Positions 3,143-25,840 of a DNA stretch of 64,000 nucleotides are shown in pieces (the first letter of the stretch is position 1; each line of letters starts with the position of its first letter). The DNA is taken from contig CM114271.1 in the NCBI GenBank assembly GCA_050084515.1, positions 32,364,001 through 32,428,000 on the forward strand, read 5' to 3'. The position numbers were made by a program, and so were the translations under genes. This DNA comes from Blasia pusilla (taxonomy: Eukaryota). A model generated the notes under the pieces. It worked only from the letters and a program-made list of their open reading frames with translations. It searched no databases and was not told where the DNA came from.

Positions 3143-3180
3143 TGTTCCCGAAAATGCCACCTCCTCGACAATGAAATTAC

Positions 3181-3280: not shown

Positions 3281-3459
3281 CGTGTAAAGCGCCCCTTGGT
3301 ATCTAGTCCGCTGAAGAGCAATCAAGATCGCGAAACGAAAAACCTAAAATGAGCAAACCCTAGCCTATTTATACTTTTCGAGCCGTTGGGCTGACCGTTG
3401 TGTCGCACAGTCGTTCCGACGGCGACGTGTCGGCCGTTATGGAGGTTTGGACGTGAAAA

Positions 3460-4020
3460 CCATCAACCCAAAAGTCTCCGATGGGTTGGAGGCATCCGTC
3501 CTAGCCGAGATATCTGGCAACCTGTCGGAGTCCGACATGTTGCGCACCTCCGCTGTCTTGGGGGAAGAACGCGAGATACCCGCGCAACCCGTCGATGACC
3601 GACGGCTTGCACCCTTCCCTTGTCTTGGGATAACAAGGCGGGGTACCTGCGCAACTCGTCGAAGGCCGACGGGTTGCACAATTTCTTCATGTAAGCGTTC
3701 CAAGGCGAGGCACTTGCGCAACCCGTCAAAGGCCGACGGGTTGCACGCTTCCCTCATCTTGGGGTAATAGGCGGGGTACCTGCGCAACTCGTCGAAGGCC
3801 GACGGGTTGCACGCTTCCTTCATGTAAGCATTACAAGGCGAGGCACTTGCGCAACCTGTCGGAGGCCAACGGGTTGCACACTTCCCTCATCTTGGGGTAA
3901 TAGGCAAGGTACCTAGGCAACTCGTTCGTTACAGACAGGTTGCACTCCTTTCTATCCCTAGGGTAACAATGTGACAACGGATAGTTTCGAGGCAACCTCT
4001 TGCAATCCGACGGGTCACAA
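3460..4020. repeat. Tandem array of ~66-bp units with palindrome GCAACCCGTCGGA-N-(T/G)CCGACGGGTTGC
   Basis: Palindromes at about 3517, 3583, 3651, 3717, 3783, 3851, 3917 and 3992. Confidence 0.9.
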
Positions 4021-4954
4021 GATCTACCCTGAGTTGGACAATCCCATAATAGTCCCCAACGATTAGTTACCTTAGCAAATGTGTCAGATATGTCAAAGAT
4101 TTTCACATATCAAAATAGTCCTATCCTCAAAGCCAACAGTCATGTGAGGCTTTGTCCTTCTTTTCTTGGGGGACCTTTTGGCCTCAATAAGGTATTTAAC
4201 ATTATCAGTAAGCTCGTGCGATTCTTGATGATACCCTGCACAAGCCATAGAAGTAATTAGATCATGACGTGTAAATGATAAAAATAGATCATAATCTAGA
4301 GTGCCCTAATGAAATCTAATTGGAGTTATATAAGAAAATGAACTTACTTTTCAAAGTTGATGGCTTCTCTACAAGTGCATCATTATATGACACATTGGAC
4401 GTTGTTTCTTTTCCACTTTGAGCCGATTTAGAGACCATGCGCATGAGTACATTCATTTTCAATTTGGGATCTCATATCATGTAGAACTTCATCCAATTTG
4501 CTCTCCACCTCATTCATGTGGGAAGTGACATCTAATTCAACTCCCTATCAAACATAGTAGATAATTATCATAAGATGACAATACTTTCTCTTCCAAATTT
4601 CCTGATTTTTCCTTTCTATCCATGACTACTACACTAATTTATTTTGAAACTTGTGTGTTACCCGTGATGCCCAACTAAAATCTGTACTGGTGGGGTGTAA
4701 TAATATTACCTCCTCTCTTGTTGTACCATGAACAAAATTGTATCTTTTTGGAACCCCCTAAAATACAATAAGTCGGTGGCCTCGTTTTGGGTTGGGCCTA
4801 TGGAGGACGCGGTGAAGGGAGATGTGTGTGATTGAATTGTGGTGTCATAATTCAAATAAGAAACAAGTACAAATTTCATATGTAAGCTGATGGGAACGCC
4901 TAAATTTTGAGAGGAGAAGAACCCAACAATTTTAAGCTACGTTTTTACAACTAA

Positions 4955-7228
4955 AAGCTAGGTCACATGTCAGGTTAAGGGCTTACTGACAACACGTGTG
5001 AGCCTAATCGGTCGTCGTAGTTCAAAGTCTAGATATGTGAGCGGGCCTTCGTCATTTGCTTGGCCAATAGTGTTTTTGGATGTGGTGAGTAAAGGTTAAT
5101 GAGCACGTTATCCACGTTTATGGTAAACCAACTTGGTGCCACACGAGGTATTATGGAGGGCGTACGTACGTGAGAGTGGAGCGCCCCTCCCATTTTTTGG
5201 TGGATTCTAATCTAGACCCTAGCCATCAATCACATGCAGTGAGGTAGAATGATCGACCACCATTAATTGTGGTCAATAGAATAGGTAGGCCGTGGGCAAC
5301 CTTTCCCATTTTTTTAAGTTTTCCCGCTTCCTATTCGTATAAGGAGGCCAGTCCTGCTTGGTATAGGATGACAAGGCGGAGCGGTTGATGGAGCCCAATT
5401 AAAAAAAAATGCAAGGTCGATGAGCAAGATCGAGCGAGCGATGGGGTTTCCCACAAAAGTAACGGAAATACTGTCACTATTAGAGGCATTATAACGTCAT
5501 GTCTTAGGTCAGGCGATGGTCGTGAGTAGCGTGACATGGATTACCAACTTAGAAGTAGTTGAGAAACGTTGGATGAGGTTGTGGAAGGTCAAAATTATTG
5601 CTTGGGTAAGCCCCATCCCTATCGATCGGATTGAGGATCGTTTGGGGCAAGACCCGAGGAGATTGGCACATCACAAGTGATTGGGAGAGATACCCTTAGA
5701 CTTCTTGGGATATTTTGCAGGTATGCTAAGAGATGGCAATGTCGTGCAAATCCACATCGTCATACAACATACATCGCTGACATACCATATTCACATACAT
5801 ACATAACATAGACGAGAGTAATCACAAACACACCACAACTGAAATCCATGGAAGACCTACTGTCATAAAACACGTATAGAATCACATACAATCGAGCCAA
5901 ACCCACTCCACGATGGGAGAATCTAGGTCGAAGCTTGCGGGAAACACCATAGCCAAGGGCTCTACTCACTACCAAGGCTAACTCCCAACGCAACAGGCTC
6001 AACTCAAAGAACTGACTGTTCTTTGAGTGCACTCCACCTTATATCCTCCAACCTAAGAGCGGGCCCTACTGGGAAAGTCACCCCCAACTCAGTAACCCCC
6101 AACCCTATATATGAAACCGCATCTCTACCAAGCCACTACGGTCCTACATAAGGAATGGCCTCTACTAGCACACTATACTCTACGACATAATCCGTATGGT
6201 CATGACAGCAACCATAACATTGAGCGCTAGCGTGGTGAAAGGCCCTGCACACCAAGGAGCTAGATGAGATTTGCAGTTGGTTGTAGGGCAATAGTCGGGT
6301 TCTATTGTTTGAGATGGGGTTGCACCATAGCAACCACAGATACTTGTGCCATAGAGTCCTACAAAAGTCATGATGGAGACTTGGGAGCCATGTATGGGCC
6401 CTAAGTTGATAGGAGGCCGAAGATCGACACCCGATACATGAGTTTCTTAGGAGTCATAGGAGCTACTTTGCATTTAGTATGTATGATTTGGGTACATTGA
6501 AGGGTCTAGGGATTCGCATTGGGGTTTTAAGAGATATGCTGATCTTTTGATGACTCGACAAGTACAGTGATATGGAAAGGGCTCTCATTAAGGGTAGGAG
6601 CCATGACTTGGTTGGATTAGGACTAGTGGAGATGTCATACGGAGAGTATGCATCTGCCACCATCATGCTTGCCAAGAAGGATGTGCATGCATATGACAAC
6701 TAGACAAATAGGCGAATTTATGGAGACTACTGACCTATCAATCGGCATACAAAGTTTGATAGGTATGCGCATGCTATGCTCACTCCTGAGGAGATCTTTG
6801 ATGCTATTAGGCATGCAAAGGTCTTTAGTTCTTTAGATCTTTGAGCCTGACACCGTAAGTTGCCTAGGAGATTGGAGGACAAGCATGAGAAGATATTTTG
6901 GGGCATTGATCCTCACGAAAAGGATTGTTTGTACCACTGGAGGTTCTTACCATTTGGGTTAAAGAGTGCTCTGACAGAGTTTTAGAGGATCATGGATAGG
7001 ATCTTGGTAGGTCTGGATTTTACGAGATATTTTATTGATGGTATCGTAGTCTTTAGCGCCACGGTCAATTGAGGAGCATGACTGATATTTGGAGGAGGTG
7101 TTACGATAATTGTAGTTACATGGACTGAAGCTATATCCACGCAAGTGCAAGTTCTTCTATGACCACATTGAGTACTTGGATCACACGATATATCCAAGTG
7201 GCCTTGGTGTTCAAAAGATGAAGATAGA
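4955..7228 (+). mobile_element. Decayed Gypsy-like fragment (C5-DNMT C-terminal part, then RT), split by a solo terminal repeat
   Basis: Nucleotide homology to 48445-50250; DNMT-region remnants (RLW.TNL, AMGFP, LGQAM); RT remnants (DYR-like, YFIDGI, GLGVQK). Confidence 0.8.
5740..6207 (-). mobile_element. Solo terminal repeat unit (A+B), 468 bp, with 4-bp TSD GCAA
   Basis: TGTCGTG...CATGACA; homologous to 10638-11107; GCAA at 5736-5739 and 6208-6211; flanks rejoin to match the uninterrupted sequence near 49275. Confidence 0.92.
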
Positions 7229-7347
7229 TGTAGTGTGCATATACATCGCTACATCACATATATCACTGTCAATGAATATACACACAAACACGCACGATCC
7301 AATGCTAACTCATGGCATCCAAACAATTAGACGAGAACCAAAATATC
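7229..7347 (-). mobile_element. Terminal A unit of a second-subfamily split-repeat retroelement
   Basis: Reverse complement matches ~33808-33929; starts with TG exactly where the upstream RT remnant stops. Confidence 0.75.
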
Positions 7348-7348
7348 G

Positions 7349-8534
7349 AGGAGAGGAAGAGAGGAAGAGAGGAGAGAGGAGAGAGGAAACTACCTTCAAC
7401 CCAAAGAGATACTTTTTTTAAGAGAATTTCTTGTGATTTGAAGAGATTTTCTGTTGGGTTGAAGAAAGGAAACTTTTTGTGTGATCTTTTTTGCAGTTTT
7501 TTTCTCAATTTTAGGCACTCCTACACAATTTTTTTCCTCTTCCACATTTTGGAAACCCGTCAGAATCCGACGGGTTGCAAATTTGCACAAAATTTTAAAA
7601 ACTGAAAAATCATTGGAATCATAAATATGGAACAAATCACTTTTTCCATCCAAGGTCTAGAAAAAATCTATCATTTGCCCTAGGCTGAATAGAGTTCAAG
7701 CTCAAAGTGAAGGTTATGGCAAATGAAAGTATAATCTAAAACCTCATTTTGCATCCTCAAAGTGGTTTGTTTAAAATACTTTGCACTTCTTTGAGGGACA
7801 GAATTGTTTGGTGGATTCCTACTCCTACCTCCGACTCTCTTAAAACTACAAGCAATACATAGTACATGTGCTTACAAGGGAAATACCTTTTCCCACTTGT
7901 CTCTCTTTGGACAAAGTCGTCACAGGAACATGTGGGAAAGCAAAAGAAATGCACCACATACACCTCTGTGACACTTGAATTTACAGTGTTGTTCTTGATC
8001 CAATACATATTTCCTATTCCATTGCCACTCTGGATATCTTTTTTGGCGATGATTTCCATGTTTGCCTCCCGAGCTGATGCGATTCGCTTTGCTCTCTCCA
8101 CCGTTGGCCTACACATTTTTTTCTCTTTACCCCATTTCTAGACTCAGAAAAAAATACTGGATTGAGATCATCCACCTTCTCCGGGTACATATTCACATCA
8201 ATCTTGGGTTGAATACGAAATGCGAAGGTCTCTGTAATGCGAACATGCTCTGAACTTGCTCCATCTACGAGTCTGAAAGGGCACTTGTAAGATTGTCCAC
8301 TTCCTCGTGAGTGCAATTGGTACTTGCGGCAATGGGCCAAATTGTGGGGGTATTCCCTGGAGCTCCAATGGCAGCCAGATAAGACTTTCGGAAAGCGCAG
8401 GATTCATTTGGGTAGAAGAAGTACTTCAATTGATCTCCGGTCCTCGTGAAACGATCAAAGGTTTTGAGTCCCCAAAATCTAGGGAGTGGTCGTCTAGTCC
8501 TTGTACAATTCTTGTTTAGGAAAGTGCCGCATGC
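7349..8534 (-). repeat. Left inverted arm (~1.19 kb)
   Basis: Diverged reverse complement of 26935-28114, including the SWIM-coding region. Confidence 0.9.
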
Positions 8535-9100
8535 TCTCCTAATGCCATCAGATCCTGCCTAGCAAGTGGGGTCCACATCCAGGGTTGCTCCGAGATATAT
8601 GCCACCTTTTGAGGTTGCAATCCACCTCAATGACCGGAATCCCATATTGTTGAACCACCCTAGCGACCGGATGTTGCGAACTTCCAGCAACGGAGGGCTT
8701 TTGAAATAAAACATTCACTGGTTTTGGAGAAGTTATTGCATCACGGATTTGTGAGCAATCCGGGGTCTCCGAATACCTGGGCGTAATTTCCTCATCCAAA
8801 TCAATCACCGGGTTCGTTCCTCGATGCCGCCTCTTCACTTGGGTGAAGTCAAGATACTTATCTGATCTCCACGAGTCTCGCTCGAACAACTCTACCACCA
8901 TCTGTATGGGATGTCTTGAAACACGCCCACGAATATCCCCACCAACGTGGACATCTTGCTCAAGAGGAGTTCCTGCTACGCACCGATTGAAGGCTTCCAC
9001 ATAGAGTTTTTCGTATTATTGTTGAAGGACCATTGGCAAATAATTTGACCAGAAGTAGGAATTTCATCTCAATGAAAGGTTCAAATAAAGACTCTAACTA
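7757..9100 (-). pseudogene. C-terminal part of SWIM zinc-finger (MULE-type transposase-like) gene
   Basis: PTCSCDDF-x9-FPCKHMYYVL is a SWIM CxC-xn-CxH motif; upstream frames (WHISR, YFF.PNE) broken by frameshifts. Confidence 0.7.
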
Positions 9101-9624
9101 TGGTCTCAATTGACTCCAGTGCCCTTCAAGGTTTAACTTCTGTGAATATGTGGTTGACATTATGGATTGTTGACTCTTCTTGCAAAAGACATCAAATACT
9201 CATCAATAAGGGGCAAAAGAAAGGCAAAAGGAAATGCCTTTAAATGATTGCTGACTCTTCTTGCAAAAGGCATCAATACTCATCCATAAGGGGGTTTTCC
9301 ACAATAGAACAAATCACTCGTCACTCATGGTAGCCAAAGACTTTCATTTCATCATTTGATGATGTGGGCTTATGAATGGGTGCACAAAGTACACCATGGA
9401 CTACTGTGCGTTTGACAACTTGGTTTCACCATTCTCTCTCCCCCTGATAAATGTGATCACATAGCTGTCAGGAGTAAAGAGGAACTAATCAAAAAGAAAA
9501 TGTGATCAGACGAGACAACAATTGAAGCAAAAGATATTTAGCTGTTAGGAGTAAAGAGGAACTGACGCACCCATGTCCCTTCATTTAGATCCTAAATTTG
9601 AGAATCCGAGAAGCTGCACCCCTC

Positions 9625-9910
9625 CCAACCCGTCGAAATTTGACAGGTTGCAAGTCTTGCAACCCGTCGGAATCGGATGGGTTGCACCCCTTGCAAGCAA
9701 GCTCACCATAACAAAAGAAGTATTTTGAGAAGTGATTCCATTCCGATCTTTTGAGGCATTCTAGCAGGCTTCTTCACTTTTGTCTCGTTCCCCTATTATC
9801 ATCAAACCATTCTTCTCTAATTCTTCTCTTCTCTAAGACGTGTTGGATTCCTACTACTTGTCGGATTGCCATTTGGAATTCCCAACCAGTTGGATTCTCA
9901 ACCTGTCGGA
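9625..9910. repeat. Palindrome cluster
   Basis: e.g. TGCAACCCGTCGGAATCGGATGGGTTGCA near 9658. Confidence 0.75.
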
Positions 9911-10049
9911 TCCTAAATTTTACAAACACCATCATGGTTCAAAAAATTCTTGTCCTTTATTACATCCAACGGAAGCTCAGAAATGTACATTTGATCTAGT
10001 CTATGATTTCTTCAGCCTCGTCATCTACAAATTTACTCCTAACTCTCCT

Positions 10050-10637
10050 AGGTTCCTATACAAAAGGAATGTCCTGGGATACAAGTAGACGAGGATAAAA
10101 AATGTTGGGGAATTCGAGAGCCTTGGCCCTCCCCTAGGTACACCATAACGGTCCCATGTAACCTGATTTGAGTCCCACTGCCTTCCTCAGCACTAAATCT
10201 TGTACGCTCTGCAAGGTGACACCCATCCAGTATCAATATGTGCTCCGTCCTTGGAAACCAATAAATCCCTACTCCAAAACGCTTAAGTCAAGATGGGTCC
10301 TTTAGTTCTTTGAACTCACTCCTCATCGTCCGAGAGCTCTTCCAGAATTACTGTCGGCCTTGCCCTCCCGATTTTTAGAATTGTGGGAAGTGACGATGGT
10401 GTCACTATCCATGGTGGGTCTGGAACCGGAGCTCTCGGCTTTGGAGGAGAGTTGTATGCTCCCACTAGCCTGTCGTAATCTACCTTTGCCTCTTTGCAAA
10501 GGTCATAAAGTTCTTGCCTTCCCTCAAGGCAGAGAATGTTCCTGCCACTCTGCCAGGCGCCTCTGATACTCGCCCTTTGATAGGCCCACTAAGTCGAAGA
10601 CCAAGTCACCCGGCCTTGAACAGAGCTCGATGAGCAT
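10050..10637 (-). pseudogene. C-terminal part of beta-class N4C/N6A DNA methyltransferase domain (SAM-binding region); 3' limit approximate
   Basis: MLIELCSRPGDLVFDL...(frameshift)ASIRGAWQSGRNILCLEGRQELYDLCKE; continues the frame GGTEKSPALMQ from the other side of the retro insertion. Confidence 0.7.
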
Positions 10638-11213
10638 TGTCGTGCGAATCCCCATCGTCATATAACATACATCGCTGACATACCATACTCACATACATAC
10701 ATAACATAGACAAGAGTATCCACAAACGCAAGTGTACCACAACTGAAATCCGTGAAAGACCTACTGTCATAAAACACATTTACAATCACATACAATTGAG
10801 CCAAACCCACTCCACGATGGGAGAATCTAGGTCGAAGCTTGCGGGAAACACCATAGCCAAGAGCTCTACTCACTACCAAGGCTAACTCCCAACGCAACAG
10901 GCTCAACTCAAAGAATATTGTTCTTTGAGGGCAAGCCACCTTATATCCTCCAACCTAAGAGCGGGCCCTACTGGGAAAGTCATCCCCAAGTGAGTAACCC
11001 CCAACCCTATGTATGGAACCGCATCTCTACCAAGCCACTACGGTCCTACATAAGGAATGGCCTCTACCAGCACTATACTCTACGACATAATCCGTATGGT
11101 CATGACAGCTGTCGTGCAAATCCCCATCGTCATACAACATACATCGCTGACATACCATACTCACATACATACATAACATAGACGAGAGTATCCACAAAGG
11201 CAAGTGTACCACA
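10638..11213 (-). repeat. 3' terminal repeat block: A (10638-10741), B (10744-11107), GC, A (11110-11213)
   Basis: The two A copies are near-identical (~104 bp); B matches 19566-19917; junction CATGACA-GC-TGTCGTG. Confidence 0.92.
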
Positions 11214-11228
11214 ACTTGCCCCCCTAAC
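11214..11228 (-). promoter_or_regulatory. Polypurine tract
   Basis: Minus strand reads TTAGGGGGGCAAGT immediately before TGTGG, the start of the inner A unit. Confidence 0.65.
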
Positions 11229-11388
11229 TGGCGGTTAGGTCCCTCTAACTCCCAGGTAGCCCTATACATCTACTACATGCTATACACCTTCTTGGGTGCC
11301 CGAATCAGAAGGCCGGGTGCTAGGTTGCCCCATCGTTAGTCGCACATCTGTAATCCATATCATGCAGAGATCAAGTCATCTACCTCTC

Positions 11389-12830
11389 CTAAGTACATCG
11401 AGGACAAACCCACCTTCTAGTAGGAACAACATCCAAACGTGGAGTCAAACACATCATGTGCCAACCCCTAGAACACCGATCACACACCAACATACGGGCT
11501 GCGTTACCAGCAGACCCACACAACATGCACCTCAAGCTAGCACGTATCATGGCTAAGCTTGGGTCAACAGTACCATCCACATTTGGAAGATGACATGGCG
11601 CACAATTACGCACATGGTCCTTCCAAACAACTCCATCACGACCCTCCAACATGAGAGCTCCAGAAGCTAACACCTCACGCACTCGTAAAATAGTGCGGCC
11701 TGCCGTCACATCCAACGTTGTCGGGGCAATCTGCTGCAAATAGACATAGTCCCCCACATGGAACCTACTAATCGATGGTCGATAACCTCCATCCCGAATG
11801 GTTGCATACCGCAACGTATCCCTGTGTTGAGCAATGGCAAGATTCTCAAAGGCTGTTGGCATAACTCTCCGAAAGAGCTCCGCCCGCTGAGAACACACCC
11901 TCATCCACATCTCTGGGTCATCAAGGTCCACCACCTCACTAGACTCCCGACAAATTCTTTGCTTGGCAAGTCCGGATCTCGCCGATAATGAGAAAATAAG
12001 GTGAGAAGGAAGCCAAGGATGCTTGGCGATCGAACCTATACCCCATGGCTAACCATGGCAACTCGAATATCCGGTCTCCAAGATGCCCTTCAGAGGCCAT
12101 ACTTGCGCGATGCCCTCTTCTTCACCGTCGAACCACACGCTCAGCCAAACCATCCGCCTCTGGATTATCTCGAGACGTGGTCCGATGATCAATCAACGCC
12201 TTGTCACACAAGATCTGAAACTCACCCTGAAACTCAGACCTGGTCGGTCAAGACTTCGGTGGTGCACCAAAATGACTAAGCACTCTATCCAGAAATGCAT
12301 ACGCCCGTTCCTCACTTGCCTTGTCCGTAATGCCACCAACTCAATCCACTTGGAGAAGTGCTCCACCATCACCAACACATATCGATGATGTCGCATCAAT
12401 GGTAACGGTCCCCAAAGTCCACACTCCAACGGTAACCCAACCCCATAATAGGCAAGGGGTGTAATTGTGGTGTAGGGGCATTAAATGATGCCCTCACCGG
12501 TCACAAACCATACAACGTGACACCAATCGCTGCACTTGAGTATGCATGCCACGCCACCAATATCGCCAAGGAGTAAGCTATACGACGCTTTACCCCAAAA
12601 TGTCCCAACTCCTCATGGGCATGTCGCACAATGCGCTCTCTGTGAGCCAAATGTGGCACTACTCGTACTCTACCATCCTCCCACATACGGAGAATATGTG
12701 TTCCCTCCAATCGATACCTCTTAGCACGTTGAAGAACACGGTCTCGCTCCTTGGCACTCACTATGCCTGGCACCCTACTGGTCCGTAGGAACTCCAACAC
12801 CAACGCATCATCATGAATATCACGCTAATC
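11389..12830 (-). pseudogene. DDE integrase with C-terminal PHD finger
   Basis: HAHEELGHFG Zn motif; GPLP...YVLVMVEHFSKWIE rve core; CMLC...LVCDRCSRGWHMMCLTP...WVCPRC is a C4HC3 PHD at ~11395-11535. Confidence 0.9.
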
Positions 12831-13049
12831 CGCACCACCATCTCCAACCTTAGGATCTCAAGGTGGCCATCTACCCTCGACTAGAGTAAGATATCATGTG
12901 GTCCTCCATACTAGAGTCCACCCCTTACCAACATAAAAAGGGGGATGCATGCCAACCTGGCACCATCTCCTCATCAACCTTGCCATGCCATCTAGCCCCA
13001 GTTGGATCCTCTTGGCTAGTACATGGGTTCCTACTCAACCCATCAAAGC

Positions 13050-14380
13050 ATCAAGGTTGGCAACTCTGTGTCTATGTACCACTTGGAAGTCATACTCTGT
13101 AAGATAAGAGCCCACCGTGCAAGCTTCCTGTAAGCTTGTCCGACTCCATCAACCACTTGAGCGGTGGTGATCAGTAACAAGGGTAAACGTGTGCCAAACA
13201 AGTAACACCTAAAGTGTGCCACACCACACTCGCCAAGCACTCTCCCTCATATGAACTATAGCGCGACTCATTTGCATTATTCGAACGACTTGCATAGGCC
13301 ACCACAAACTCCATGTGCTCATCATCATGTTATGTCAACACCGCTCCAAGTCCCAACCTACTCCAATCGTGTGTAATCGAAATGGGCGCCTCGATAGGTC
13401 TCCTCAAGATAGGCGCCGCCACCAACTCGGGCCTTAAGCTCCCCAAAAGCTCTCTCCGATCATCTCCCAAAGTGCCACTCTTGATCTCATTTCAGCAATT
13501 GGTTCAAAGGCTTTGCCATAGCACTAAATCCCTTCACATACCTCCGATAGTAGTTCGCCAATCCCATGAATGCTCGAACTCTACTCACATCTACCGGACG
13601 CAGAATAAGTGCAATAGCCTCCACCTTTGCTTGCTAAACTCCCAAACCACCTGGATAGATCACATGACCCAAGTACTCAACATCCTCATGGAAGAACTTA
13701 CACTTTCCTGGATGCAAACATAGACCATGAGCTTTCAACCGCTCAAACACCATCTGCAAATGTATCTGATGCTCCTCCACCGTGTTACTGAACACCAAGA
13801 TATCATCAATGTAACACCGAACAAAATCCAACCCTGCTAGGATCCTGTCCTTGAAACTCGGCAGGTGCATTCTTCAACCCAAAGGGTAAGAATTTCCACT
13901 GGTACAAACAATCCTTGCCATGAGAGTTGACACCCCAAAATGTTGTCTTGGCCTTGTCACTCTCCCGAATCGGCAATTGATGGTATCTTGCCCGAAGATC
14001 CAAAGTACTGAAAATATTTGCCTGTCCCACCACATCAAAGATCTCCTCAGGTGTAGGCATGGCATACCTATCGGCCTTGGTTTGCCGATTGATAGGACGG
14101 TAATCTCCACACATCCACCTATCCGTGTAGTTGCCGTGCATATCCTTTTAGCGAGCATGACAAAGGTGGGCGATGCATACTCTCCATGCGACAACTCCAC
14201 TAATCCGGCCTCCAAAAGGTCCAACGCCCTACTCTGAATCAGGTCCCTCTCCATATCACTATATCGGTAGGGACGACGGAAGATTGGCGTATCACTAGCC
14301 AAATCAATCCGTATACCGGGTCCAACCAGAGAACCCAACTCCTTCATGCTAAAGGCAAAACAACTCCTATAAGCACGTAG
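13050..14380 (-). pseudogene. Reverse transcriptase + RNase H (Gypsy-type)
   Basis: RMCGDYRPIN, FSTLDL..YHQL, LPFGLKNAP, CYIDDIL, KCKFF..VEYLGH; RNase H HFRCYL, KLARWALILQ. Confidence 0.95.
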
Positions 14381-14749
14381 GAACTGTGTCAGCGTCGTTT
14401 CTCACCTCCCGTAAGCTTGGGCCCAAGTAATGGCTCCCAAGTCTCCTCCTTTGGCATACTAGAGGGAGAGGCGATGCCATTGGTCGCTACGCAACCCCCT
14501 CACAAGATGATACACCCTTAGCTACACCATCATCCGAGCAAATAACTCCTCCACCAAAGCATGAGCTACCAACTCCACATGCCCAACCATTACATCCCAT
14601 TTACTCCAAGGATGCAAAATACTACTCTCCTCGCCCCTTTGACCGATGCCTCTATCGCCCGGTAGCCATCGAGCTCATTACAAGGGGTGGAAGACCCATG
14701 ACATAGTCCGAAATCGACGCTCGCCACCCATACCAAGACTCAAAATCCA

Positions 14750-15700
14750 AGTCAAACAATTCAGGTCCATGGCTGACCCAACACATGACGTCGTGAAGCC
14801 TCAAAAATAGAAGCAACGGCATTTGTCACACCGAAGAGCAAATCCCATCGACGCTCTCTCTCATCGGTGTTAGGCTCCACCAACCGCCGCGACATGAGAA
14901 TCCCATACAAGCCCCGGACCACCTTCCCTGTAGGCATGTGACGCTGGAAAACTCACAAATGTGGGTAGTGCCATCCTAGGTCGGCCCACACGGTTCACCA
15001 CGCCATGGGTGACCGATCAATAACCCTCACCACTTGAGAAAGTCGCCCAAGATTCAAGATACTATCCTTTGTAAGGTGAGGATCCGGCCTGCACCTTTGC
15101 ATCATATGCTCGACGTAGAACCTCCCTAGGCAACAAGTTTGTCCACCACAAGCGTGGGCGATGTGCACGCTGAGCCAACTCATGTTGCATCCAACAATAC
15201 CGCTGGTCCAATCCAAGACCGCACTCATGAACACTCGCCATCATCCGGGTCCGAGTGTCACCCAACAATGGAACATTCTCGAATGTAAGCTAGAGCACGT
15301 GTGCGATGAACTGAAGATGTCGTAACACCCGTAACATCTCCCAAAACAATCGAGACCTAGGGTCATGTAATCCCTCACCACGACCAAAGACGTGTATGAC
15401 CCCGACATGGCCATCCAAAGCAATCACCAAATCCACAGGACCAACCCTCTCAAGGTCCTGCGCCCCCAACAATGCAATGTGTGATGGTAAAGCACGCTGG
15501 TACCCACGAATAGCGATGGCGGCAACAACTCGGATATCTCGCATCAATCGACCAATATGTCGGGATGAGACTCTCTGGGCCGTCTCATCTCGCTCCACAT
15601 ACACGTATCTCCGACAGAATACCGCCCTGCAACATCGCCGCCAAACCGGTGCTAATCCCACCAAAGAGATTTAACACACAAATGCCCTCCGGGGATCTTG
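14750..15700 (-). pseudogene. C5 cytosine DNA methyltransferase domain within pol
   Basis: Motif I VLNLFGGI; motif IV VDLVIA-GWPC.GH; SRLFWE; motif VI ENV; motif VIII RAHRPRLWWTNL; motif X RHVLGQAMD. Confidence 0.9.
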
Positions 15701-16049
15701 CGCCATACAATGGATGTAGTATCCAAAGGGGATAACCCCAATCGGGCAGAAGTAGGAGTCCGTGGGGCCTCCTCTTCCTCGTGAGGTATAATGACCTCAC
15801 ACCAAGCCTCCTGCACTAGGCGTCAGCCTCTGCCGTAGTGCACCCCTGAACTCCAAAGTGGCACATCCGATGAGGATGCCTTTGCTGCAAAAATAGGGAC
15901 CTCCTCTTCCTCCTTATGCGCAGGAGAATCCATAGCGAAACATTACCCTCCAAAAGTCTCTGGCCAAGTGACTACTCCACTAAAACCAGACCCACAGATG
16001 CTAACATCTGTTGGGGAAGACCCTCATGGTCGAGCCCCGAAATAAATCT

Positions 16050-16500
16050 CACAGAACTTGGCTCATACGTCCATCCCGGATCGCCAACCTGGTCTATAAG
16101 ACGCTGTCTCACTCCAAGTAATCCATCTGAAAACCCATCGGGTACAATCATCGCTCCTCCAACTAGTACATCATACGACTCGACCGGTGATGTGACTACC
16201 GCAGATATTCCCAACCGGGAGCTATCGGTCGCATGATCCGGTCTCAACTGCATGAGAAAAATTCTCCCGTGTCATGAATTGAGACCTATCATTGGCTCCT
16301 CCAAGTGATGTTTGAATCTGGAATGGGCAAGGCTCAAGCTCGACCTCCGAATACCCAAACCAATACATGCCGCCTTTCCCAACATCAAGGTTGGGCACCG
16401 AGTCTAACAAGACTCTATCCGGTCTATACACCTATCTGTAGGACTCACCAATCAGAAGATCCCACCGGTTGTCCAACATACATACACCGGTGTAAGCCTC
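16050..16500 (-). pseudogene. Aspartic protease remnant
   Basis: RVLLDS(G) active site and YDVLVGGAM C-terminal motif. Confidence 0.75.
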
Positions 16501-16899
16501 TCACGATCAATGGCTGGCCGGGCCGGTAATGCATCCATCTTCGCTTTGCTACCCGCCAAGTAGCTTTGGTACTCAATGCTACTCGACATAGAGGGTCACT
16601 CCACCGCAACACCCTCATCCACCTCAACACGTAGCAAGAATAACACCCCACGTTCACACAACGTGGTCGCTAATCGAAATACAGGTGCTAAGTCAACTCC
16701 TAAAGCCATCGCTCCGTGGTGGAAAACAATGAGATCCCAACACTGAAGTTGCCATCCGCACATCGATCGATCTTTGCATCCGTGTCTACTACACGCGATG
16801 TAGATGCCTCAGTCCCCACTGTCGGCTCAATAGGCTGCGTAGGAACCATGGATGGAGTCCTAAGCACCTCAGACAACAAGAATGACTGGGGAAGCCTAG

Positions 16900-18460
16900 C
16901 TTGCCTCCCAGCCTCACCCCTCTGTGGGTCCAACTCCTGAGAGCACAACGTGGCTCGACGCTTTCGAGTGGCTCCTCAGAATCGCAGCCGGTGATGCCTC
17001 AACTTTTGTCCGCACTCGCCATATAAGAGAGATCATCCCCTCCATAAGAGGTGGAAGCCCTGCTCCCGAACTTGATCTATATGTCGGATACCGACCATAG
17101 TAGCCAACCGCTCCAATCGCTCAATCTCGGCGACCATAGCGACTCTGTCGAGTGGTCGGGTAGCCACCGTAGGCTCTCCAACCACTGGTCCACCTCTACC
17201 ACCCCTACCATCTCTACCACCTCGGCCTCTCGGAGCTACTCCACCAAGGCCACGGCCTGATCTCAACTCTGGATGAAGATCAAAGCAACGCTCTCGAGGA
17301 TGACCTAGTCTCCCGCAATGATCACACTGAGTTGGGGCCGACTGAGGCCCATCCTCCAAAGTCCGTCTCCCATCCTCTTGGGGACAAAACTTCCTAACAT
17401 GATCACCTCCACATGTCCAACATGACTGTCCTTGCTGCGGGGCAGCAAATGAAGGCAATGGTCTCTGCAAAAATGTCCCTCTAGGACTTGATCGAGGTCG
17501 CGTGTACCCCCACGACTCCCACTACTACTACCACCACCACTACTACGAGCGTGAGGTGGGCGGCTGAACACGAGAAGTAGTAGTTGTATCCCCTCTTGAA
17601 TGCGGATGTCACCACTCTCTCCTTCACCATGTTAAGCTCAATCTTCTCGAGATAGAGCAAACACATGGATCAATGTGGGTGAATCATCACTCATAAGAGT
17701 AGCATCACGCACCCTACGGCGCAAATCTCTCGTCCAAGATCCCATACCAAAATCGGATCGCTGATCCTCGTCACACCTGGTAATCGAAATCAAGCGTCGA
17801 TACGCTGGCGTGTATGCCTCACGAAGACTCTCACCAGTCTTTCGCTCAAAGTCTGAAGATTCCTCAACTTCTCCGTCTTCACTCCTTGATAGTTCTTCTT
17901 CAACCTCTTGAAGAACTCGCAATCGGGCTAAATGATGGTGGGGCACTAGTACCTCCACTAGAACCCCACTAGTACCTCCACTTTGGTACCCCCACTCCGG
18001 CTCGCACTGCGTACCACTCAACGTCGGGCTGGCTGGCATAGTAGGAGCACTACTACCAATACCACCATGGGTGATAGACACATAGCCTGGAGACCAATAT
18101 TGTCTCCATGCCTCAATCTCAGCAACATGGTCCTTCCTAAACTCATGGTAATCATCCATGGGTGGTCCTTCCAAGTGCTGAAACAACCCTTCCAAGCCAA
18201 GAAGGGTGTAAACAACGTGGCATTCCGCAACATCTGCATATCACACCACGTATCAAACTCCTGCATGAAGTCCTCCAACTCAATGGTACCCACTGCACCC
18301 GAGTATCGTCGTGGGCCCTTCATGGCCCCATATCCACCGTCCATGTCCCAAATCAATGGAGCGCAACACTCGATAACAACGTAGAAGACTCGGTGTTTGG
18401 AACACCTCGCCCTCCTCTTCATCAACCGTCGGAAGTGGAAAAGGTAGCCGATACCTAAAT
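16900..18460 (-). pseudogene. gag with two zinc knuckles
   Basis: CWTCGGDHVRKFC and CDHCGRLGHPRERC; GESLREAY capsid-like motif. Confidence 0.85.
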
Positions 18461-19553
18461 CCACTCCATGTGAAACCACCACTGTCCGCACCACGGTCCC
18501 CAACCAGACCACCCGACAGCTCCGTGATGACCAACGCCGATGCCGCACCACCACCAAATTACCAAGTAACGTCGATGTCGCTATACTATTCTAGCTCTAC
18601 TAGCTATGGGTGTAGGCAACCTAACTTGTCATCACCACAAGAAGTCTCCCACAATCTACTCGTCATCCCTCCAGCCTCACTACCGGTAGCACACAGGAGT
18701 AACACTACTCTGGAAATCAACGTCAACCCTAACAATGGGCGCGCAAGCAAGAAGCACGATGGAGGGGATCCAAACAGAGGAAATCCAACGACAACCCTCC
18801 AATCGCAAATGGAAATCAAGGTAACACAATCCACCAAACGTGGTGCCCTCTGAATCCACAAAACCCACCACACAATTCTAACGCAATAGCTACTCCGCCG
18901 CGGGTCGATGACGTGCTAGTCGAACGCGCAGCACCTAAAAATATCACCTGCATGGCGAGGCTACACCGTACTATGCGCTAGAGGTACATCAACCAAAAAC
19001 TTGAGATGCATAAAGCGCCTAACACATCTCCGAACAGCACCAAATGAGCTACAACAGTCTGTACACTAGCATAGTTAAGAACTCGGCGATTAAGCGTCCT
19101 CCGAGAATAGCCCAAAGATGGGTGACCAGTTATGCAAAACTCAAATCCCAAATCCTGCAAAAATTGCCTCACGCCCAAGCAAGCAAGCTTGCTTGCTTGC
19201 TCCTTGCTCCTTACTCCGCCTCTCACGCCCACTCGCCCCGAGTTGCCTCGAAGCCTCTCACCCGATCTGGATGAACTTCAACACAGCTTCCGCACTCCAA
19301 GCTCTCCACATCAGAAAACCGTCGAACACGAACCAGAATCTTCAATCCTTGATAACTTCCAACTCCCTTGACGAAAACCGGCGATCTAAAGCGCATTGGA
19401 AAGCTCTCAGCAAGGCGCTTCTTTCCCAACCAATCGCGCACCAGATTCACACCTCCAACATAGGCCACAAGCCACGAACATCCACGGCTGAGTACACAAT
19501 CAGCCCTAACAAGATCCTACTGATCTACAATCGAAGCTACCATCGATCTACTC

Positions 19554-19565
19554 CAGTTCTTTGAG
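19554..19565 (-). promoter_or_regulatory. Putative self-priming primer-binding site
   Basis: Minus strand CTCAAAGAACTG directly follows the ...TTTCA end of repeat B and is complementary to minus-strand CAGTTCTTTGAG (19740-19729), which starts 29 nt downstream of TATAA (19769-19765). Confidence 0.75.
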
Positions 19566-19917
19566 TGAAATCCGTGAAGGACCTACTGTCATAAAACACG
19601 TTTACAATCACATACAATTGAGCCAAACCCACTCCACGATGGGAGAATCTAGGTCGAAGCTTGCGGGAAACACCATAGCCAAGAGCTCTACTCACTACCA
19701 AGGCTAACTCCCAACGCAACAGGCTCAACTCAAAGAACTGACTGTTCTTTGAGGGCAAGCCACCTTATATCCCAACCCTACTGGGAAAGTCACCCCCAAG
19801 TGAGTAACCCCCAACCCTATGTATGGAACCGCATCTCTACCAAGCCACTACGGTCCTACATAAGGAATGGCCTCTACCAGCACTATACTCTACGACATAA
19901 TCCGTATGGTCATGACA
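19566..19917 (-). repeat. 5' terminal repeat B (TG...CA, contains TATA box)
   Basis: Matches 10744-11107 apart from a short deletion; no A unit at this end. Confidence 0.92.
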
Positions 19918-20274
19918 GCATTTGCATCAAGGCAGGGGACTTTTCCGTTCCTCCAAGTAAGGGGGTCCTGTCTTGCATGTAAATTCCCGGGGGAATTGTA
20001 TAAACTATCTAAGTTGTACCCATCAAAGCATGGATTGATTGGATCTAGGATCTCGAACACTTGGAAGTTGTGCTCGGGCCTTACAAAATAGTAGACAAAG
20101 GAGTGGTCCATCTGTAAAGAAGCAGGTTGGAAACAATGTCAGAAAAAAGAAAGAGCTACTTGACCGTTGGTCTACTCTCAATATGGTGACACAATGTGCA
20201 ACATGTCCATAGTGCATTCTAGTCCTTGTTGATTACCAACTCATAAGAACTTGGCCTATAGTCCTAACAGTAGA

Positions 20275-20615: not shown

Positions 20616-22719
20616 GGATTAAGAGCACTTACCCGGACTTGACTCATCGCCAATCGGAGTGGATACTCGTTCTTGATGACCCATGATTGCACTGTCCTCC
20701 ACTTCAACGACCTCTTCACGCATTGAAGGTTGAAGAGCTTGTCCTTGGTCCCTCCAGTCAAGACCAAGAAACAACCCTGTCACTCAGATAAGCGTCTGCA
20801 AAAGAAAACAAGAGCGCGATCTGGTCGTAGGAAAGAGGGACAGTGCAGTCTAGGACAGTGTCAGATGGATTGTTGTCCCACAAGCGAAACCCAAAGGGCA
20901 AATTTTGTGATGAGGAGATCCACCGCCACCTCCTCGACCACCCCATGGACCGTCGAGAGAGCATGCACATTTCGTTGAAGGTTTTGTCCCAGCATGGTCA
21001 ATTTGTCGATGGCGAGTGTCGACTCCTGGGAACTAAAACTTTGCAGCTCATCCACAAGATGAGTGAAGTGAATGAGGATATTTGTCCTAGTCGTTTTTTC
21101 TCTATGCCTTCCCAAGGATGATGGAGTGTATTCCATATCCTTATCTCCTCCCTAGGACAAACCAAACGCCTCCCGCTTTCGCTTCTCCCGAGTCTATGGT
21201 CGGCCTATGGGGGTATCTGTTACCTCAGACTCCATTGGAGTTTTCTTGGCGGAGGATCTGGTCTGGCCCTCTCGCCCCGCTTGCTCGGACGATTCCACCT
21301 CTCGCCTTGAGGTATCAGCCTCTTTTTTGGAAGAATCGACCTCAAAATTCTTCGCTCCCCTCGCCTTTGCTTTCAAACCCGCTATAGATTTGTTCTTGGT
21401 GGTGACGACCTTGGACACCAACTCCACTGTCTTGAGGGCTTGCTCCTCCGCATCTCCTTCAAAAAATCTTTAGGATGCATAAAATTTGGAATGTCGTCCC
21501 TACCTGCGACCACTGCATCATAGACCAGACATAGATTTTTTTCGGTTATGTCCTTAGAGTCGTTGAAGTCCAACCAGATTGGGCGATTGTCAACCTCCCA
21601 ATCGGACATGCCCTATGCCATCTCCATGTCGTACATAGATAATGCCTCTCCATCAGGCGGAGAAGCCCACAATTTGCGGGCTGCCGGTATGTTTCGCCAA
21701 GCACCTGCATTCTTACAATTGATGAGGTACCTGTACACCATCCGTCGGGCTGCTCTTTGTCAAGATGAATTGGCCGCCTGCTCCTGAAGATCCCGCTTCT
21801 TCTTTGCGAAATCCCTTTTTTTGGCGTCAATTTCTTCATCCAGGTCTGCCTAAGGGAGGATGTGATTCTTGAACATCATCCTGAAGCCTGGATTTTTCGT
21901 GGGCTTGTCTCGGATGCCATCAAGCCATAGTTTGAAATCTTCTGCAGTTTCTAGGTTTGGTTCCTCCGGAACTGGCTCAATCTTCTCCAGCTCTGCTTGA
22001 AGACCCATGAGCATGGACTTCCCGAGAAGCGGCAACGCATCCCAGAATGACCATTCACTTAGCCAATGGGAGATCATTGGATCAGAAACTCCCGGAGGAT
22101 GGTGTGCCGCCTGCTTTTGGGCCTCTGTGCCCTCCACACTGATTTTCATCAGTCAAATTCTCCTAAACTCAGAAATTCCAGACAGTGCAAATTTGTGAAC
22201 GCGGTCCATAGACACTTTCTCGCCGATCCAACCCTATAGATCTTCGTCTCTCTTCCGCTGACGCTTGGTTATCGCCTTGAGCTCCTTGTAGAATTCTGGG
22301 CCAAGTTAGGGGTTCAGAATGGCAATGTATCGCTGCATCTTGCTTGCAGTGTACTTCATAGCTGCAGATATTGCAGACTTGATAAACTTTGCACGTTCAG
22401 ACGCAGACATGTTCCCCCTTCGCTCCAATTCCAATGAAGCGCTCTTCTTGGCAGCCTGGATCTTCGACCAACAAAGGATTGTGACGACTGCATCTTAGGA
22501 AATGAAGGTATTTGCCCAAGTCTTCTTTTTAATTTGAGCCCCCTTCGCCAGCATCTCATTTACCACAGCGTCGCCCAAGAACCCCTTGTACTCTGTCGGG
22601 TCCGTCGTAAGCACCTTTTTCACCTTGTCACAATCCTAGATCCAATGGTGGGTGACATTCCCCTCGGATACAATCCTGTACATCCAAACACACGCTAAGA
22701 ATTATTGCAAGCTACTAGG

Positions 22720-23385
22720 TTCCTACAACCTGTCGGACTCTAACTGGTTGCAAGACCTGGTGGTCGAAATGGTGGCATAGAGAAAAATATTGCAATCCGT
22801 CAGAGTCCGATGGGTCGCAACACCTTTTTTCTGTTACACTTATTGCAACACTCAAGCAAATTTTGAGACATAATTGCAACCCATCAGAGTCCGAAGGATT
22901 GCACTCGGATTTTGTGATTTTCTAGTCCATCCGTTTTGGTCCTTGGCTACAACCCATCGGACTCCGACGAGTTGTAAAAAATAGCATATATCAACCCGTC
23001 GAAGTCCGACAGGTTGCGCAATTTGTTGTAAAGGTGGGATTGGACGCCTAAAAGCAAGCTCTCCTACTCCGACCACCTACCTATGGGGGCAAATGCAACC
23101 CGTCAAAGTCCGACGAGTTGCTTTCGGCCAAAAATCCCAAAAATAGCGGACAGTCCTATTTTTAGGCGTCCGATGATTTGTTACCACTAGTTTAACAACT
23201 CGTTGAAGTTTGACGGTTTGCAGAACATATAAATCATGCACTCATTTTTACACCCGTCGATGGTGGACTGGTTTTGGTATCCCAGCTTTCTCTAGTGTGC
23301 TTGGCCACCAGGCAACCCGTCGGACTCCGACGGTTTGCTTGAAGCTTTCCAATTATGCAACCCGTCTGACACCGACGGGTTGAAG
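22720..23385. repeat. Palindrome cluster in intron 1
   Basis: About nine copies, e.g. GCAACCCGTCGGACTCCGACGGTTTGC near 23312. Confidence 0.85.
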
Positions 23386-24904
23386 CAATCAAAATTAAGG
23401 AAGAGGAAACTTACCCATTCATGGCATGGATTGCCATTTCCACCGTTGCCATGTGATGAGGAAAATGCGCCTCCAATGAATTTGGGCGCTCCTATGTAAA
23501 CTGGGTCCACACCATGTACTTGTGGTTTCCATCCCAGATGAAGAAGTAAAGGTTCCGCATCCAGCTAAATTGCGTCCCCTCAATCGCTCTTCTGAACTCC
23601 TGATCTCTCATCCTCCAGAATGTATCGAGCGCTTCCAAGTCCTCTTCCGTCACTAGCGCTTGGGTTCCATGTTCATCGTAAGGCTGAACATAGAACGGAG
23701 AGAAGCTGTCGACGTAGGATGTTGTCACTGCCGACTATTTCAACTTTGTAATATCCTCCTCCGAATGAATTTTGCGGACGTACTCCATGGTCCGCAATCG
23801 GCAAAGTAGAATTCTCAGGGCGTTTTGGCCCTCCATCAGTGCCATCTGCTTAACAACTTGCCACAATGGGGACCAAGTCAATAAACTACACTGTTTTGCC
23901 AATGAATTGCATCATGGGCCTTCACATAACTCAAACGTTTCTTACCCGCTCAAAGATTGGGTCGGTGTCTTGGCCGACCAACTGCTTTGGGACAATAGCT
24001 GGCAAATCCACAAGAAACTCATCGATCCGATAAAGGTCGATTTCTTCGGCCGGGATCAAAGACGAGGAAGACTGTTCTCATGCTTCTTCAGAGATGTCCA
24101 CCATCTCCACGCTTGCCGTCCTCATGACTTCATCGTCCGTCACTTGAACTTCGGCCGTTTCCTCAGCCGATTTTATATTCATGGTGTCCCCACTTTTCAT
24201 CGGGGACATTTCCTACACCTCAACACTCTGTGTTGGACGGGCAGGGCTTTCTTCAATGGCAATCACTTTTTCCCTTTGAGCTTTTGCCAATTCTGCTCTC
24301 CTCACGGACGCGTCCAGACGCTTTTTCTCACGTTTCTCGTCGGCGACTTTTCTCTTCAAGGCCTACGATGCCTCAGCCTCGACGTTTTGTTTTTTTGAGT
24401 GCCACCAGAACACGTTTTGCAAGAAGCTCCTACCTGTGCATATGTGATTCCCTTTCGCGCTCCTCTATCTCTTGCTGCCTTATCTCATTGGCCGAACGAG
24501 GCCCTAGAGATGGTGACGCAGGAGTCCTCATGGACTTGGGAGTGATGCTCCCTACCTTGATTGCTTGCATTTTTTACCTCGTCATGGTTCCCATCAATGC
24601 TTCCTCCTCGACAGTCTAGTCTCTTTCTGTGCACGAAAATTCCCTCGAATGGTCTCGCGATGAATTTCCGTGACCCTGGACCCAACTCTCTTTGCGTTTT
24701 GTGATGAAGCGCCCTCACCCTCCTCACTTCCCTTGGTATCTAGTCAGCGGCTGCGCGGAAGAGCACATGAAATCGCGAAATGAAAAACAAAAATGAGCGA
24801 AACCTCGGCTATTTATACTTTTCGAGCCGTTGAGCTGACCGTTGGGTCGCACCGTTGTACCGACGGCGACGTGTCGGCCATTATGGAACTTTGGACGTGG
24901 GAAC

Positions 24905-25840
24905 CCAGCCAACCCGACGGTCTCCGACTGGTTGCACGCTTCTCGCGTCTTTGGGATGCAGGGCGAGTTGCCCAGGAAACTTGTCCGAGACCCATGGGTT
25001 GCACGCATCCGTCCTCCTCGGGTAACAAGCCGAGCTACCCTGGCAACCCGTCGGAGACCGACAGGTTGTACGCCTCCCCCGTCTTGGGGTAACAACGCGA
25101 GATACCCGCGCAACCGATTGGAGACAGGGGGATTGCATGCCTCCCTCGTCTTGGGGTAACAACGCGAGGTGCCTGCACAACCCGTCGGAGACCGGGAGTT
25201 TGCACGCTTCCCTCGTCTTGGGATAACAAGGCAAGGTACCCGCGCAACCTGTCGGAGGCCGACGGGTTGCACGCTTCCTTCATGTTGGCGTTACAAGGCG
25301 AGGTACCCGTGCAACCAGTCGGAGGTCGACGGGTTGCACGCTTCCCTCATCTTGGGGTTACAAGGAGAGGTACCTGGGCAACCCGTCGGATACCGATAAG
25401 TTGCACTCTTTTCTCTCCCTCGGGTAACAATGTGACAAAGCAGAGTTTTGAGGAAACCGGTTGCCCTCCGACGGGTTACAAGGTCTACCCGGAGTTGGAC
25501 ACTTCCCAACATACGGCAAAATTGCACTCATGGTTTGCACGGTTAATTGAATAAGAGAAATCGACCCGAGATGCAAAAGGGAAAGCAAGGTTAGGTACCT
25601 TTGGATCCCATAACAATCACCAACGGATTGCCGTAGCAAATCCATGCGATATCTTGTGTTTGATGCTAGCAATCTCGACTCAAATCACATTGGTCAGACA
25701 AGAAGGGGATACCAACCCAACGGACTCCGATAGGTTGCAACTCGCATTGGGGCACTAACAGAAAATGGAACTCCGAGCTTCGCAACCCACGTGTCCGAGT
25801 CCCAAATTCTGCAACCCATTGGACTCCAACAAGTTCCAAC
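24905..25840. repeat. Tandem palindrome array in the divergent promoter region
   Basis: ~67-bp spaced copies at about 25043, 25109, 25177, 25243, 25311 and 25378, plus 25712 and 25810. Confidence 0.88.

Follow-up and report, generated by a model that had tools for sequence, protein, structure and literature searches.

A predicted DNMT3-type cytosine methyltransferase between protease and reverse transcriptase in a Ty3/Gypsy-type retrotransposon family of Blasia pusilla

Retrotransposons that carry a DNA cytosine methyltransferase (DNMT) have been reported from dinoflagellates and a charophyte alga by de Mendoza et al. 2018 (PMC5890265), reports that the initial annotation of the DNA studied here had cited correctly. 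Two elements described in that paper are among the closest known systems. KnitGypsy-Dnmt3, from the charophyte Klebsormidium nitens, holds an unrearranged Dnmt3-type domain inside a Gypsy-type Pol open reading frame (ORF) and combines the Gypsy domain set with the DIRS repeat structure A-coding-B-A-B; SymbioDIRS-Dnmt3, from Symbiodinium, has a Dnmt3-type domain in Pol, the same A-coding-B-A-B repeats and a tyrosine recombinase, and Klebsormidium is given fewer copies than Symbiodinium. Here we present elements of this kind from a 64,000-nt stretch of Blasia pusilla (GCA_050084515.1, contig CM114271.1, positions 32,364,001-32,428,000, forward strand), called the window below. Three places in it hold the remains of a single Ty3/Gypsy-type retrotransposon superfamily, whose Gag-Pol order is gag (CCHC), aspartic protease, a predicted DNMT3-type C5 cytosine methyltransferase, reverse transcriptase (RT), RNase H, DDE integrase and PHD finger, an identity and architecture that we regard as nearly certain. 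The kind is already published, as KnitGypsy-Dnmt3 (PMC5890265); the present elements add to it the range over bryophytes and Closterium, the order protease-DNMT-RT with a C-terminal PHD finger, the high copy number, and the transcription.

The initial annotation had claimed ordered C5-methyltransferase motifs at three places, and by sequence comparison a predicted C5-methyltransferase is present at all three, in the order given there and far above chance. These places (copies 1, 2 and 3) form no long ORFs: in six-frame readings the motifs are spread over three minus-strand frames at 14600-15850 and are readable on the plus strand in 47900-49400 and 4800-5800. The Pfam C5-methylase model PF00145 (cut-off 22 bits) missed the domain on ORF pieces and detected it only once a single frame was read through with X placed at the stops. 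Two sets of stop-to-stop pieces gave no match at E 0.01 or better (0/95 and 0/136), and the copy 2 pieces with motif I (P0002) and motifs IX-X (P0003) gave none even at E up to 10, results that count against the finding. Read through with X at 4 stops, copy 2 matched PF00145 over 48376-48876 at E 7.1e-8 and 32.7 bits, the very profile search that had been proposed as a check. Against solved structures the same piece came closest to DNMT3C (4.2e-4) and DNMT3B (1e-3), with bacterial enzymes at 0.16 or weaker. The domain was then mapped onto the window by tblastn with the uninterrupted relatives P0163, P0165 and P0296 (P-numbers such as these and P0323 are working labels for public protein relatives). 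P0163 matched all three places: copy 2 at 48131-49106 in three frames with a combined E of 6e-91, copy 1 at 15759-14681 (E 4e-73), and copy 3 at 5070-5578 (E 1e-22). A hidden Markov model of the family scored 234 bits on one frame of copy 1, 15613-14918.

The motif names I to X follow the usual nomenclature, in which the catalytic ones are FxGxG, PC(Q), ENV and RxR. Copies 1 and 2 both have recognisable motifs I, IV, VI, VIII, IX and X. Copy 2 reads LDLFGGI (I), GWPC followed by a stop (IV), ILENV (VI), RAHFPRLWWTN (VIII), EPNADEREQAMGFP (IX) and LGQAMD (X); copy 1 shows in frame LFGGISTGL (I), FENVP (VI), RAHRPRLWWTN (VIII) and GSAMDL (X). The originally annotated series I, IV, VI, VIII and X holds for these two copies, with the GWPC of copy 1 out of frame, and does not extend to copy 3, which keeps VIII, IX and X only. 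Were the stretches fragments of a host DNMT3 gene, or chance resemblances beside retrotransposon genes, the failure of all ORF pieces (0/231) to reach PF00145 significance would find an easy explanation; the chance of this is nonetheless practically nil. The three copies have the same neighbours in the same order, the tblastn E-values for copies 1 and 2 speak against coincidence, and in uninterrupted relatives the domain shares one ORF with CCHC, RT, RNase H and integrase, which together refute that explanation.

The annotated position between protease and RT was confirmed by mapping in the window and recurs in uninterrupted relatives, where the DNMT lies in one reading frame with Pol and the integrase models rve and Integrase_H2C2 are clear. 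In Closterium, P0323 has the order CCHC, DNMT, RT, RNase H, integrase, and P0326 the order CCHC, weak aspartic protease match (Pfam gag-asp_proteas, 23.8 bits, below the cut-off of 28.2), DNMT; Marchantia P0301 and P0318 run DNMT, RT, RNase H. The window features are collected in the table, in which gag was mapped by tblastn with Marchantia P0296 (residues 1-511) and P0320, and integrase with P0065 and P0322.

Table. Positions of the retrotransposon features in the window.
Feature	Position	Strand	Basis
DNMT3-like domain, copy 1 (with frameshifts and stops)	14555-15759	-	tblastn with P0163, P0165, P0296
DNMT3-like domain, copy 2	48131-49127	+	PF00145 32.7 bits; tblastn 6e-91
DNMT C-terminal half, copy 3	5064-5671	+	tblastn
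Copy 1, full-length decayed element, termini TGTC...GACA	10638-19917	-	self-blastn, sequence reading, DNA reads
Repeat A, 5' copy of copy 1	19566-19917 (to 19919 in the self-comparison)	-	94.3% identity over 368 aligned bases to 10744-11109
Copy 1 gag	18344-16778	-	tblastn
Copy 1 gag zinc knuckle CX2CX4HX4C	17285-17326	-	pattern search
Copy 1 protease motif, decayed (LLDSV; LLDTG/LLDSG in intact relatives)	16396-16410	-	sequence reading
Copy 1 RT	14392-13436	-	Pfam RVT_1 E 1.6e-15 and 3.2e-9; tblastn
Copy 1 RNase H	13425-13000	-	RT_RNaseH E 8.6e-6; RT_RNaseH_2 E 3.8e-11 (read-through); tblastn
Copy 1 integrase (H2C2 zinc finger and DDE core)	12824-11791	-	tblastn to integrase parts of P0065, P0322
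Copy 1 PHD finger at the pol C-terminus	11529-11395	-	Pfam PHD E 8.5e-11, 42.1 bits, cut-off 24
Copy 1 3' block B-A-B	B 11110-11216, A 10744-11109, B 10638-10744	-	self-blastn and sequence
Solo B-A repeat of the copy 1 family, nested in copy 3, flanked by GCAA	5740-6207	-	92% identity to 10629-11109
Copy 2, decayed, running from gag to RNase H and without its 3' end	45129-51038	+	tblastn; Pfam
Copy 3 RT	6376-7235	+	tblastn
Copy 4, gag-only fragment, zinc knuckle at 28611-28652	28124-29643	-	tblastn with P0296, P0320; pattern search
Copy 5, gag N-terminus next to integrase C-terminus and PHD, with the part from protease to RNase H deleted	32180-33605	+	tblastn with P0296, P0320, P0322

Copy 1 alone shows both ends of an element, the other copies being without them, and its sense-strand repeat layout is A-coding-B-A-B, with the two B repeats 96.3% alike over 107 bases. 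Its limits are fixed by 114 DNA reads that join 10632 straight to 19917 and show the surrounding repeat without the insertion. GCAT flanks the element at 10634-10637 and at 19918-19921 as a target duplication. In both insertions of the copy 1 family, the element and the solo repeat nested in copy 3, the flank after the terminal GACA starts with GC (GCAT, GCAA). The duplicated target may thus measure 4 bp, with GC preferred, or 2 bp (AT, AA), GC then being part of repeat A. The inner B-A junction at 11104-11113 reads GACA-GC-TGTC, which resembles two element ends joined. Inspection downstream of the 5' A repeat for a primer-binding site gave only an unconvincing TGGTAGC about 23 nt inside. The Integrase_H2C2 match of the copy 1 read-through is weak (E 8.3e-4, 19.9 bits, below the cut-off of 25.5).

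These features separate the element from its nearest structural counterparts. KnitGypsy-Dnmt3 shares with it the unrearranged domain inside a Gypsy-type Pol, the Gypsy domain set joined to DIRS-type repeats, and a streptophyte host, there a charophyte (PMC5890265) and here probably a bryophyte; the likeness is one of published description and not of compared sequence, and the family described here has about a thousand copies. SymbioDIRS-Dnmt3 shares the domain in Pol and the repeats, but it has a tyrosine recombinase (PMC5890265) where copy 1 has a DDE integrase and target duplications. DIRS elements rely on a tyrosine recombinase, not a DDE integrase, and lack target duplications. Membership of copy 1 among them is ruled out by its integrase, by the flanking duplications, and by 0 matches to Phage_integrase (the tyrosine recombinase model) in its three sense frames. 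Chromoviruses are Ty3/Gypsy elements with a chromodomain after the integrase. Copy 1 resembles them in having a chromatin-reader domain C-terminal of integrase; its reader is a PHD finger instead of a chromodomain, no Chromo domain being seen in Pfam scans of copy 1, and membership in that group is ruled out too. Chromoviruses are also mentioned in the preprint 10.64898/2026.05.21.726589.

The other copies are less complete. Copy 2 has the domain order of copy 1 through RNase H and then ends, with Pfam matches to RVT_1 on 50001-50390 and to RT_RNaseH on 50394-50789 (E 1.4e-32). In copy 3 the nested solo repeat separates the DNMT C-terminus from the RT, and copy 5 has a blastn match to copy 1 at 11220-12201. 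The protease-to-RT interval is kept in three window copies, and the DNMT is found in 3/3 of them; copies 4 and 5 are without the interval. A 109-base direct repeat (92%) lies at 44192-44300, upstream of copy 2 gag, and at 47268-47376, inside the copy 2 gag-protease region, where the protein match is broken and a nested insertion may be present. On the sense strand of both large copies G exceeds C, the plus-strand GC skew being -0.22 to -0.26 over the minus-strand copy 1 (10001-20000) and +0.10 to +0.15 over the plus-strand copy 2 (44001-50000), and the ratio of observed to expected CpG in element copies is 0.58-0.74.

What type of methyltransferase is this? A HMMER search started from the copy 2 piece matched 584 proteins with E no higher than 1e-3, among them 158 at 1e-10 or better, and 10/12 scanned relatives carry PF00145 at E 1e-4 or better, mostly within Gypsy-type polyproteins. 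An alignment of 17 short DNMT relatives (A1) shows the motifs LFGGIxTGL, YVxxDE, GWPCQG, ENVP, RAHRPRLWWTN, EPNADERERAMGF and LGQAMD, so that the catalytic motifs expected by the initial annotation are present in the family alignment. Compared with solved structures, the A1 profile came nearest to DNMT3A (E 1.4e-20), DNMT3B (about 2e-19) and DNMT3C (3.5e-19), followed by plant DRM (1e-10 to 6e-9), M.HaeIII (3e-6), DNMT2 (6e-6 to 3e-5) and M.HhaI (4e-5). All listed Foldseek matches to the predicted fold of a relative were DNMT3A, B or C, at E about 1e-13 and template-modelling scores (TM) of 0.52-0.65. Profile and predicted fold therefore place the enzyme with the DNMT3 type, its motifs not rearranged and DRM the weaker match. 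Cellular DNMT3A/B/C are the best matches by both routes and share the unpermuted motif order, unlike DRM, at about 21-23% identity in structural alignment; the window domain differs from them in having no PWWP or ADD domain beside it and in being embedded in a retrotransposon polyprotein.

Across 150 DNMT domain rows the catalytic Cys is kept in 147, the Glu and Asn of ENV in 148 and 144, and the two Arg of motif VIII in 142 and 147. In the family at large the predicted catalytic motifs are intact, unlike those of the window copies. This conservation bears on what the domain is for. It might be kept for another role, as a 5-methylcytosine (m5C) RNA methyltransferase acting on genomic RNA or as a non-catalytic DNA/RNA-binding module of Pol. 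The Klebsormidium Gypsy-borne enzyme gave no DNA methylation in yeast, and RNA methylation was raised by the 2018 authors for a DNMT borne by a long interspersed nuclear element (PMC5890265), both of which favour such a role. A mere binding module, however, would not need the Cys, ENV and Arg motifs that 142-148 of the 150 relatives keep, and the nearest solved relatives are DNA enzymes, the RNA enzyme DNMT2 lying far behind in the profile comparison; we consider these other roles rather unlikely.

Constraint within the window points the same way for DNMT and RT. Between copies 1 and 2 the nonsynonymous and synonymous divergences (pN and pS) are 0.42 and 0.77 in the DNMT and 0.42 and 0.72 in RT-RNase H, and upstream of the DNMT pN rises to 0.54. 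With pS at 0.72-0.77, change at synonymous sites is saturated, and we therefore give pN and pS in place of their ratio: the dN/dS comparison that had been suggested yields pN below pS, and saturation precludes the ratio itself. The DNMT appears to be constrained about as much as the RT. It is still present in copies 1 and 2 despite the saturation between them, and with the 3/3 informative copies and the motifs conserved in 150 relatives this bears out the claim of a stable family trait.

Among named proteins, the closest relatives are found in liverworts (Calypogeia fissa, Marchantia polymorpha, M. paleacea and Riccia sorocarpa), mosses (Sphagnum fallax, S. troendelagicum and S. tenellum) and the zygnematophyte alga Closterium (strains NIES-53, 54 and 65); Marchantia polymorpha contributes 15 gene models among the 33 rows of one relative listing, and no Klebsormidium protein was among the named matches of the relative searches. 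A second architecture, RT-RNase H-DNMT-integrase-PHD, is that of the 'pol' of Scenedesmus sp. PABB004 (P0035) and of numerous proteins without a name. By blastp, 45 of 327 family rows have RT before DNMT, 12 have the order of the window, and 270 are without RT. A tree of the DNMT domain was built with FastTree (Shimodaira-Hasegawa-like support, without a cellular DNMT3 outgroup) from 83/152 rows, 69 being left out; the rows taken were all named ones, all with RT, every fourth unnamed one without RT, and the read-throughs of two window copies, each in a single frame. The 83 rows are split into 31 and 52 by one branch (support 99). On the smaller side lie all 7 DNMT-before-RT rows, those from bryophytes and Closterium, and the two window copies, and on the larger side all 41 RT-before-DNMT rows, with exceptions in 0/48 rows of known order. 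The green-algal sister clade thus shares with the window family a related DNMT, a Gypsy-type Pol and a C-terminal PHD finger, and differs in having the DNMT after RNase H instead of before RT. Both window copies group with Marchantia, Calypogeia and Sphagnum in a clade of 15 rows (support 100), where copy 1 adjoins a Sphagnum row (support 84) and copy 2 takes no resolved position. This suggests that the window copies belong to a bryophyte clade of elements and, lying as they do among liverworts and mosses, that the DNA has the land-plant origin first assumed for it. In the sister clade, the DNMT precedes the integrase and a PHD finger ends the protein in P0021, P0033, P0035, P0045, P0322 and others. 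P0210 belongs to this eukaryotic retrotransposon DNMT family, although its public record assigns it, as a DNA cytosine methyltransferase, to a metagenome bin of 'Candidatus Obscuribacterales'; it is placed among unnamed eukaryote-type rows of the tree, and its contig is probably mis-binned.

In the literature, the survey table in the supplement of PMC5890265 lists Physcomitrella and Selaginella but neither a liverwort nor Sphagnum. A 2025 paper in Molecular Biology and Evolution (PMC12344493) and the preprint 10.64898/2026.05.21.726589 place such elements in 'streptophytes'. Our literature search found no description of a DNMT-bearing Gypsy element in a land plant, though the supplements of these last two sources may list bryophyte cases.

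The copies seen here are dead; the family as a whole is abundant in the source species, and it is transcribed. Among indexed sequencing runs, no RNA run was listed as containing the window, and the DNA runs that were listed had small shares (0.07-0.11). Reads from three RNA runs and a whole-genome DNA run under the same species label, sampled at 1-12%, were mapped to 4500-20000 of the window at a likeness of at least 90%. DNA depth (both columns summed) is 0.86 in one low bin, 4500-5016, and about 540-1350 over copy 1, from which the family comes to roughly a thousand copy-equivalents at that likeness. All three RNA runs cover the whole of copy 1, the DNMT included, and in all three the first mates give a plus-strand depth of 10-190 and a minus-strand depth of 0-11. 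At twelve listed places the majority of DNA and RNA reads depart from the window sequence through indels of 1-2 bases. Within the DNMT, the indel at 15223 is seen in 861/1045 DNA reads and in 53/61, 30/40 and 80/89 RNA reads, and that at 15417 in 778/1037 DNA reads and in 21/31, 15/33 and 23/38 RNA reads. Since most family reads are without the window indels, the frameshifts of the window copy are mostly its own. The window has T or A where most family DNA reads have C or G at 245 + 192 places, and the reverse at 174 + 153. A joined RNA form that skips 1017 bases in the integrase region of this minus-strand element (11861-12879) is seen in 14, 20 and 30 reads of the three RNA runs and in 0 DNA reads at a depth of about 1000; the joint falls between two direct repeats of about 15 nt, and the form could be a rare expressed deletion copy, library template switching, or splicing.

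That the family is so numerous and is transcribed would also fit an enzyme that acts mainly in trans on host chromatin or that limits the activity of its own family, and both host-wide effects and self-limitation are discussed as possibilities in the 2018 paper (PMC5890265). From about a thousand copies, such a DNMT3 would spread de novo methylation over the host genome or tag new insertions for silencing. Most family copies, however, are probably broken like the five in the window, and we hold an action of this sort to be distinctly unlikely.

The explanation that we consider probably the best overall is a Gypsy Pol that carries a DNMT3, a PHD reader and a capacity for self-methylation. In intact members the DNMT domain would be made as part of Pol and would be carried in the particle or the pre-integration complex, where it could methylate cytosines of the element's newly made DNA, or DNA at the integration site, and the C-terminal PHD finger may take the chromatin-reading role that chromodomains have in chromoviruses. 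Methylation of complementary DNA (cDNA) was proposed by the 2018 authors for the DIRS-borne enzyme, and the methylation of CG by SymbioDIRS-Dnmt3 in yeast counts in favour of such an activity (PMC5890265). Taken alone, the self-methylation step is tentative, and we find it possible and somewhat doubtful. A more far-reaching version, which we think unlikely, would have a thousand-copy transcribed land-plant Gypsy family, a DIRS-like/integrase hybrid, premark its cDNA before or at integration with its own DNMT3 and read chromatin through its PHD finger, and such a family could supply the host with de novo methylation; the junction GACA-GC-TGTC would then be left over from a circular replication intermediate, its two ends joined.

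Several points weigh against our preferred explanation. All three DNMT-bearing window copies are pseudogenes with stops and frameshifts within the domain, and the catalytic motif set is intact in none of them: in copy 1 a frameshift at motif IV leaves GWPC legible in a neighbouring frame only, in copy 2 a stop directly follows the catalytic Cys and the 167 codons of the frame include four stops, and copy 3 is without motifs I to IV. Methyl transfer by a Gypsy-borne DNMT3 is a prediction from sequence, and the Klebsormidium result in yeast, 0 methylation, is called inconclusive by its authors (PMC5890265). The AlphaFold model used for the Foldseek comparison, that of the first A1 sequence, is middling (pLDDT 63.7, pTM 0.69). 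The copy-number estimate depends on the one low-depth bin being taken as single copy. The RNA corresponds to the minus strand, the sense strand of copy 1, if the usual stranded library type is assumed. RNA reads are mostly 90-99% alike to the window copy and therefore come from other family members, which may or may not be intact.

Elsewhere in the window, two long overlapping ORFs of 454 and 567 aa lie directly after the truncated copy 2, at 52310-55088 on the plus strand. The first holds the N-terminal half of RVT_1 and the second is similar to protein clusters that bear an RT, in some cases with zf-RVT (Atlas score 0.98); together they are probably a fairly young non-LTR (long terminal repeat) retrotransposon. 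At 26124-27686, also on the plus strand, ORFs of 238, 131 and 108 aa may be the remnant of a Mutator-like transposase, the last having a SWIM zinc finger (E 4.7e-4, 20.1 bits, cut-off 19.6). Pfam scans of 62 further window ORFs of at least 100 aa gave only that SWIM zinc finger and a sub-threshold 3Beta_HSD match, so that host genes in the window give no indication of the taxon. A stretch of some 4 kb occurs twice, at 348-4045 and 21461-25506, with 80-88% identity and holds arrays of 67-base tandem units at 3517-3898 and 24909-25492; its ORFs have no protein family matches.

Cytosine methylation is the main weapon of the host against transposons, and a transposon with its own de novo methyltransferase is therefore a paradox. 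In the accessible literature, DNMT3 borne by Gypsy or DIRS elements has been documented so far only in dinoflagellates and one charophyte alga (PMC5890265). The window, together with gene models of Marchantia, Calypogeia, Riccia, Sphagnum and Closterium, shows that Gypsy elements with a predicted DNMT3 are widespread in bryophytes and among the algae most closely related to land plants. What use the element makes of the enzyme can now be addressed in organisms with transformation and methylome tools, such as Marchantia. The bryophyte and Closterium members of the family sit in public databases as hypothetical proteins, and DNMT3-like matches in bryophyte genomes may be retrotransposon genes and not host enzymes.

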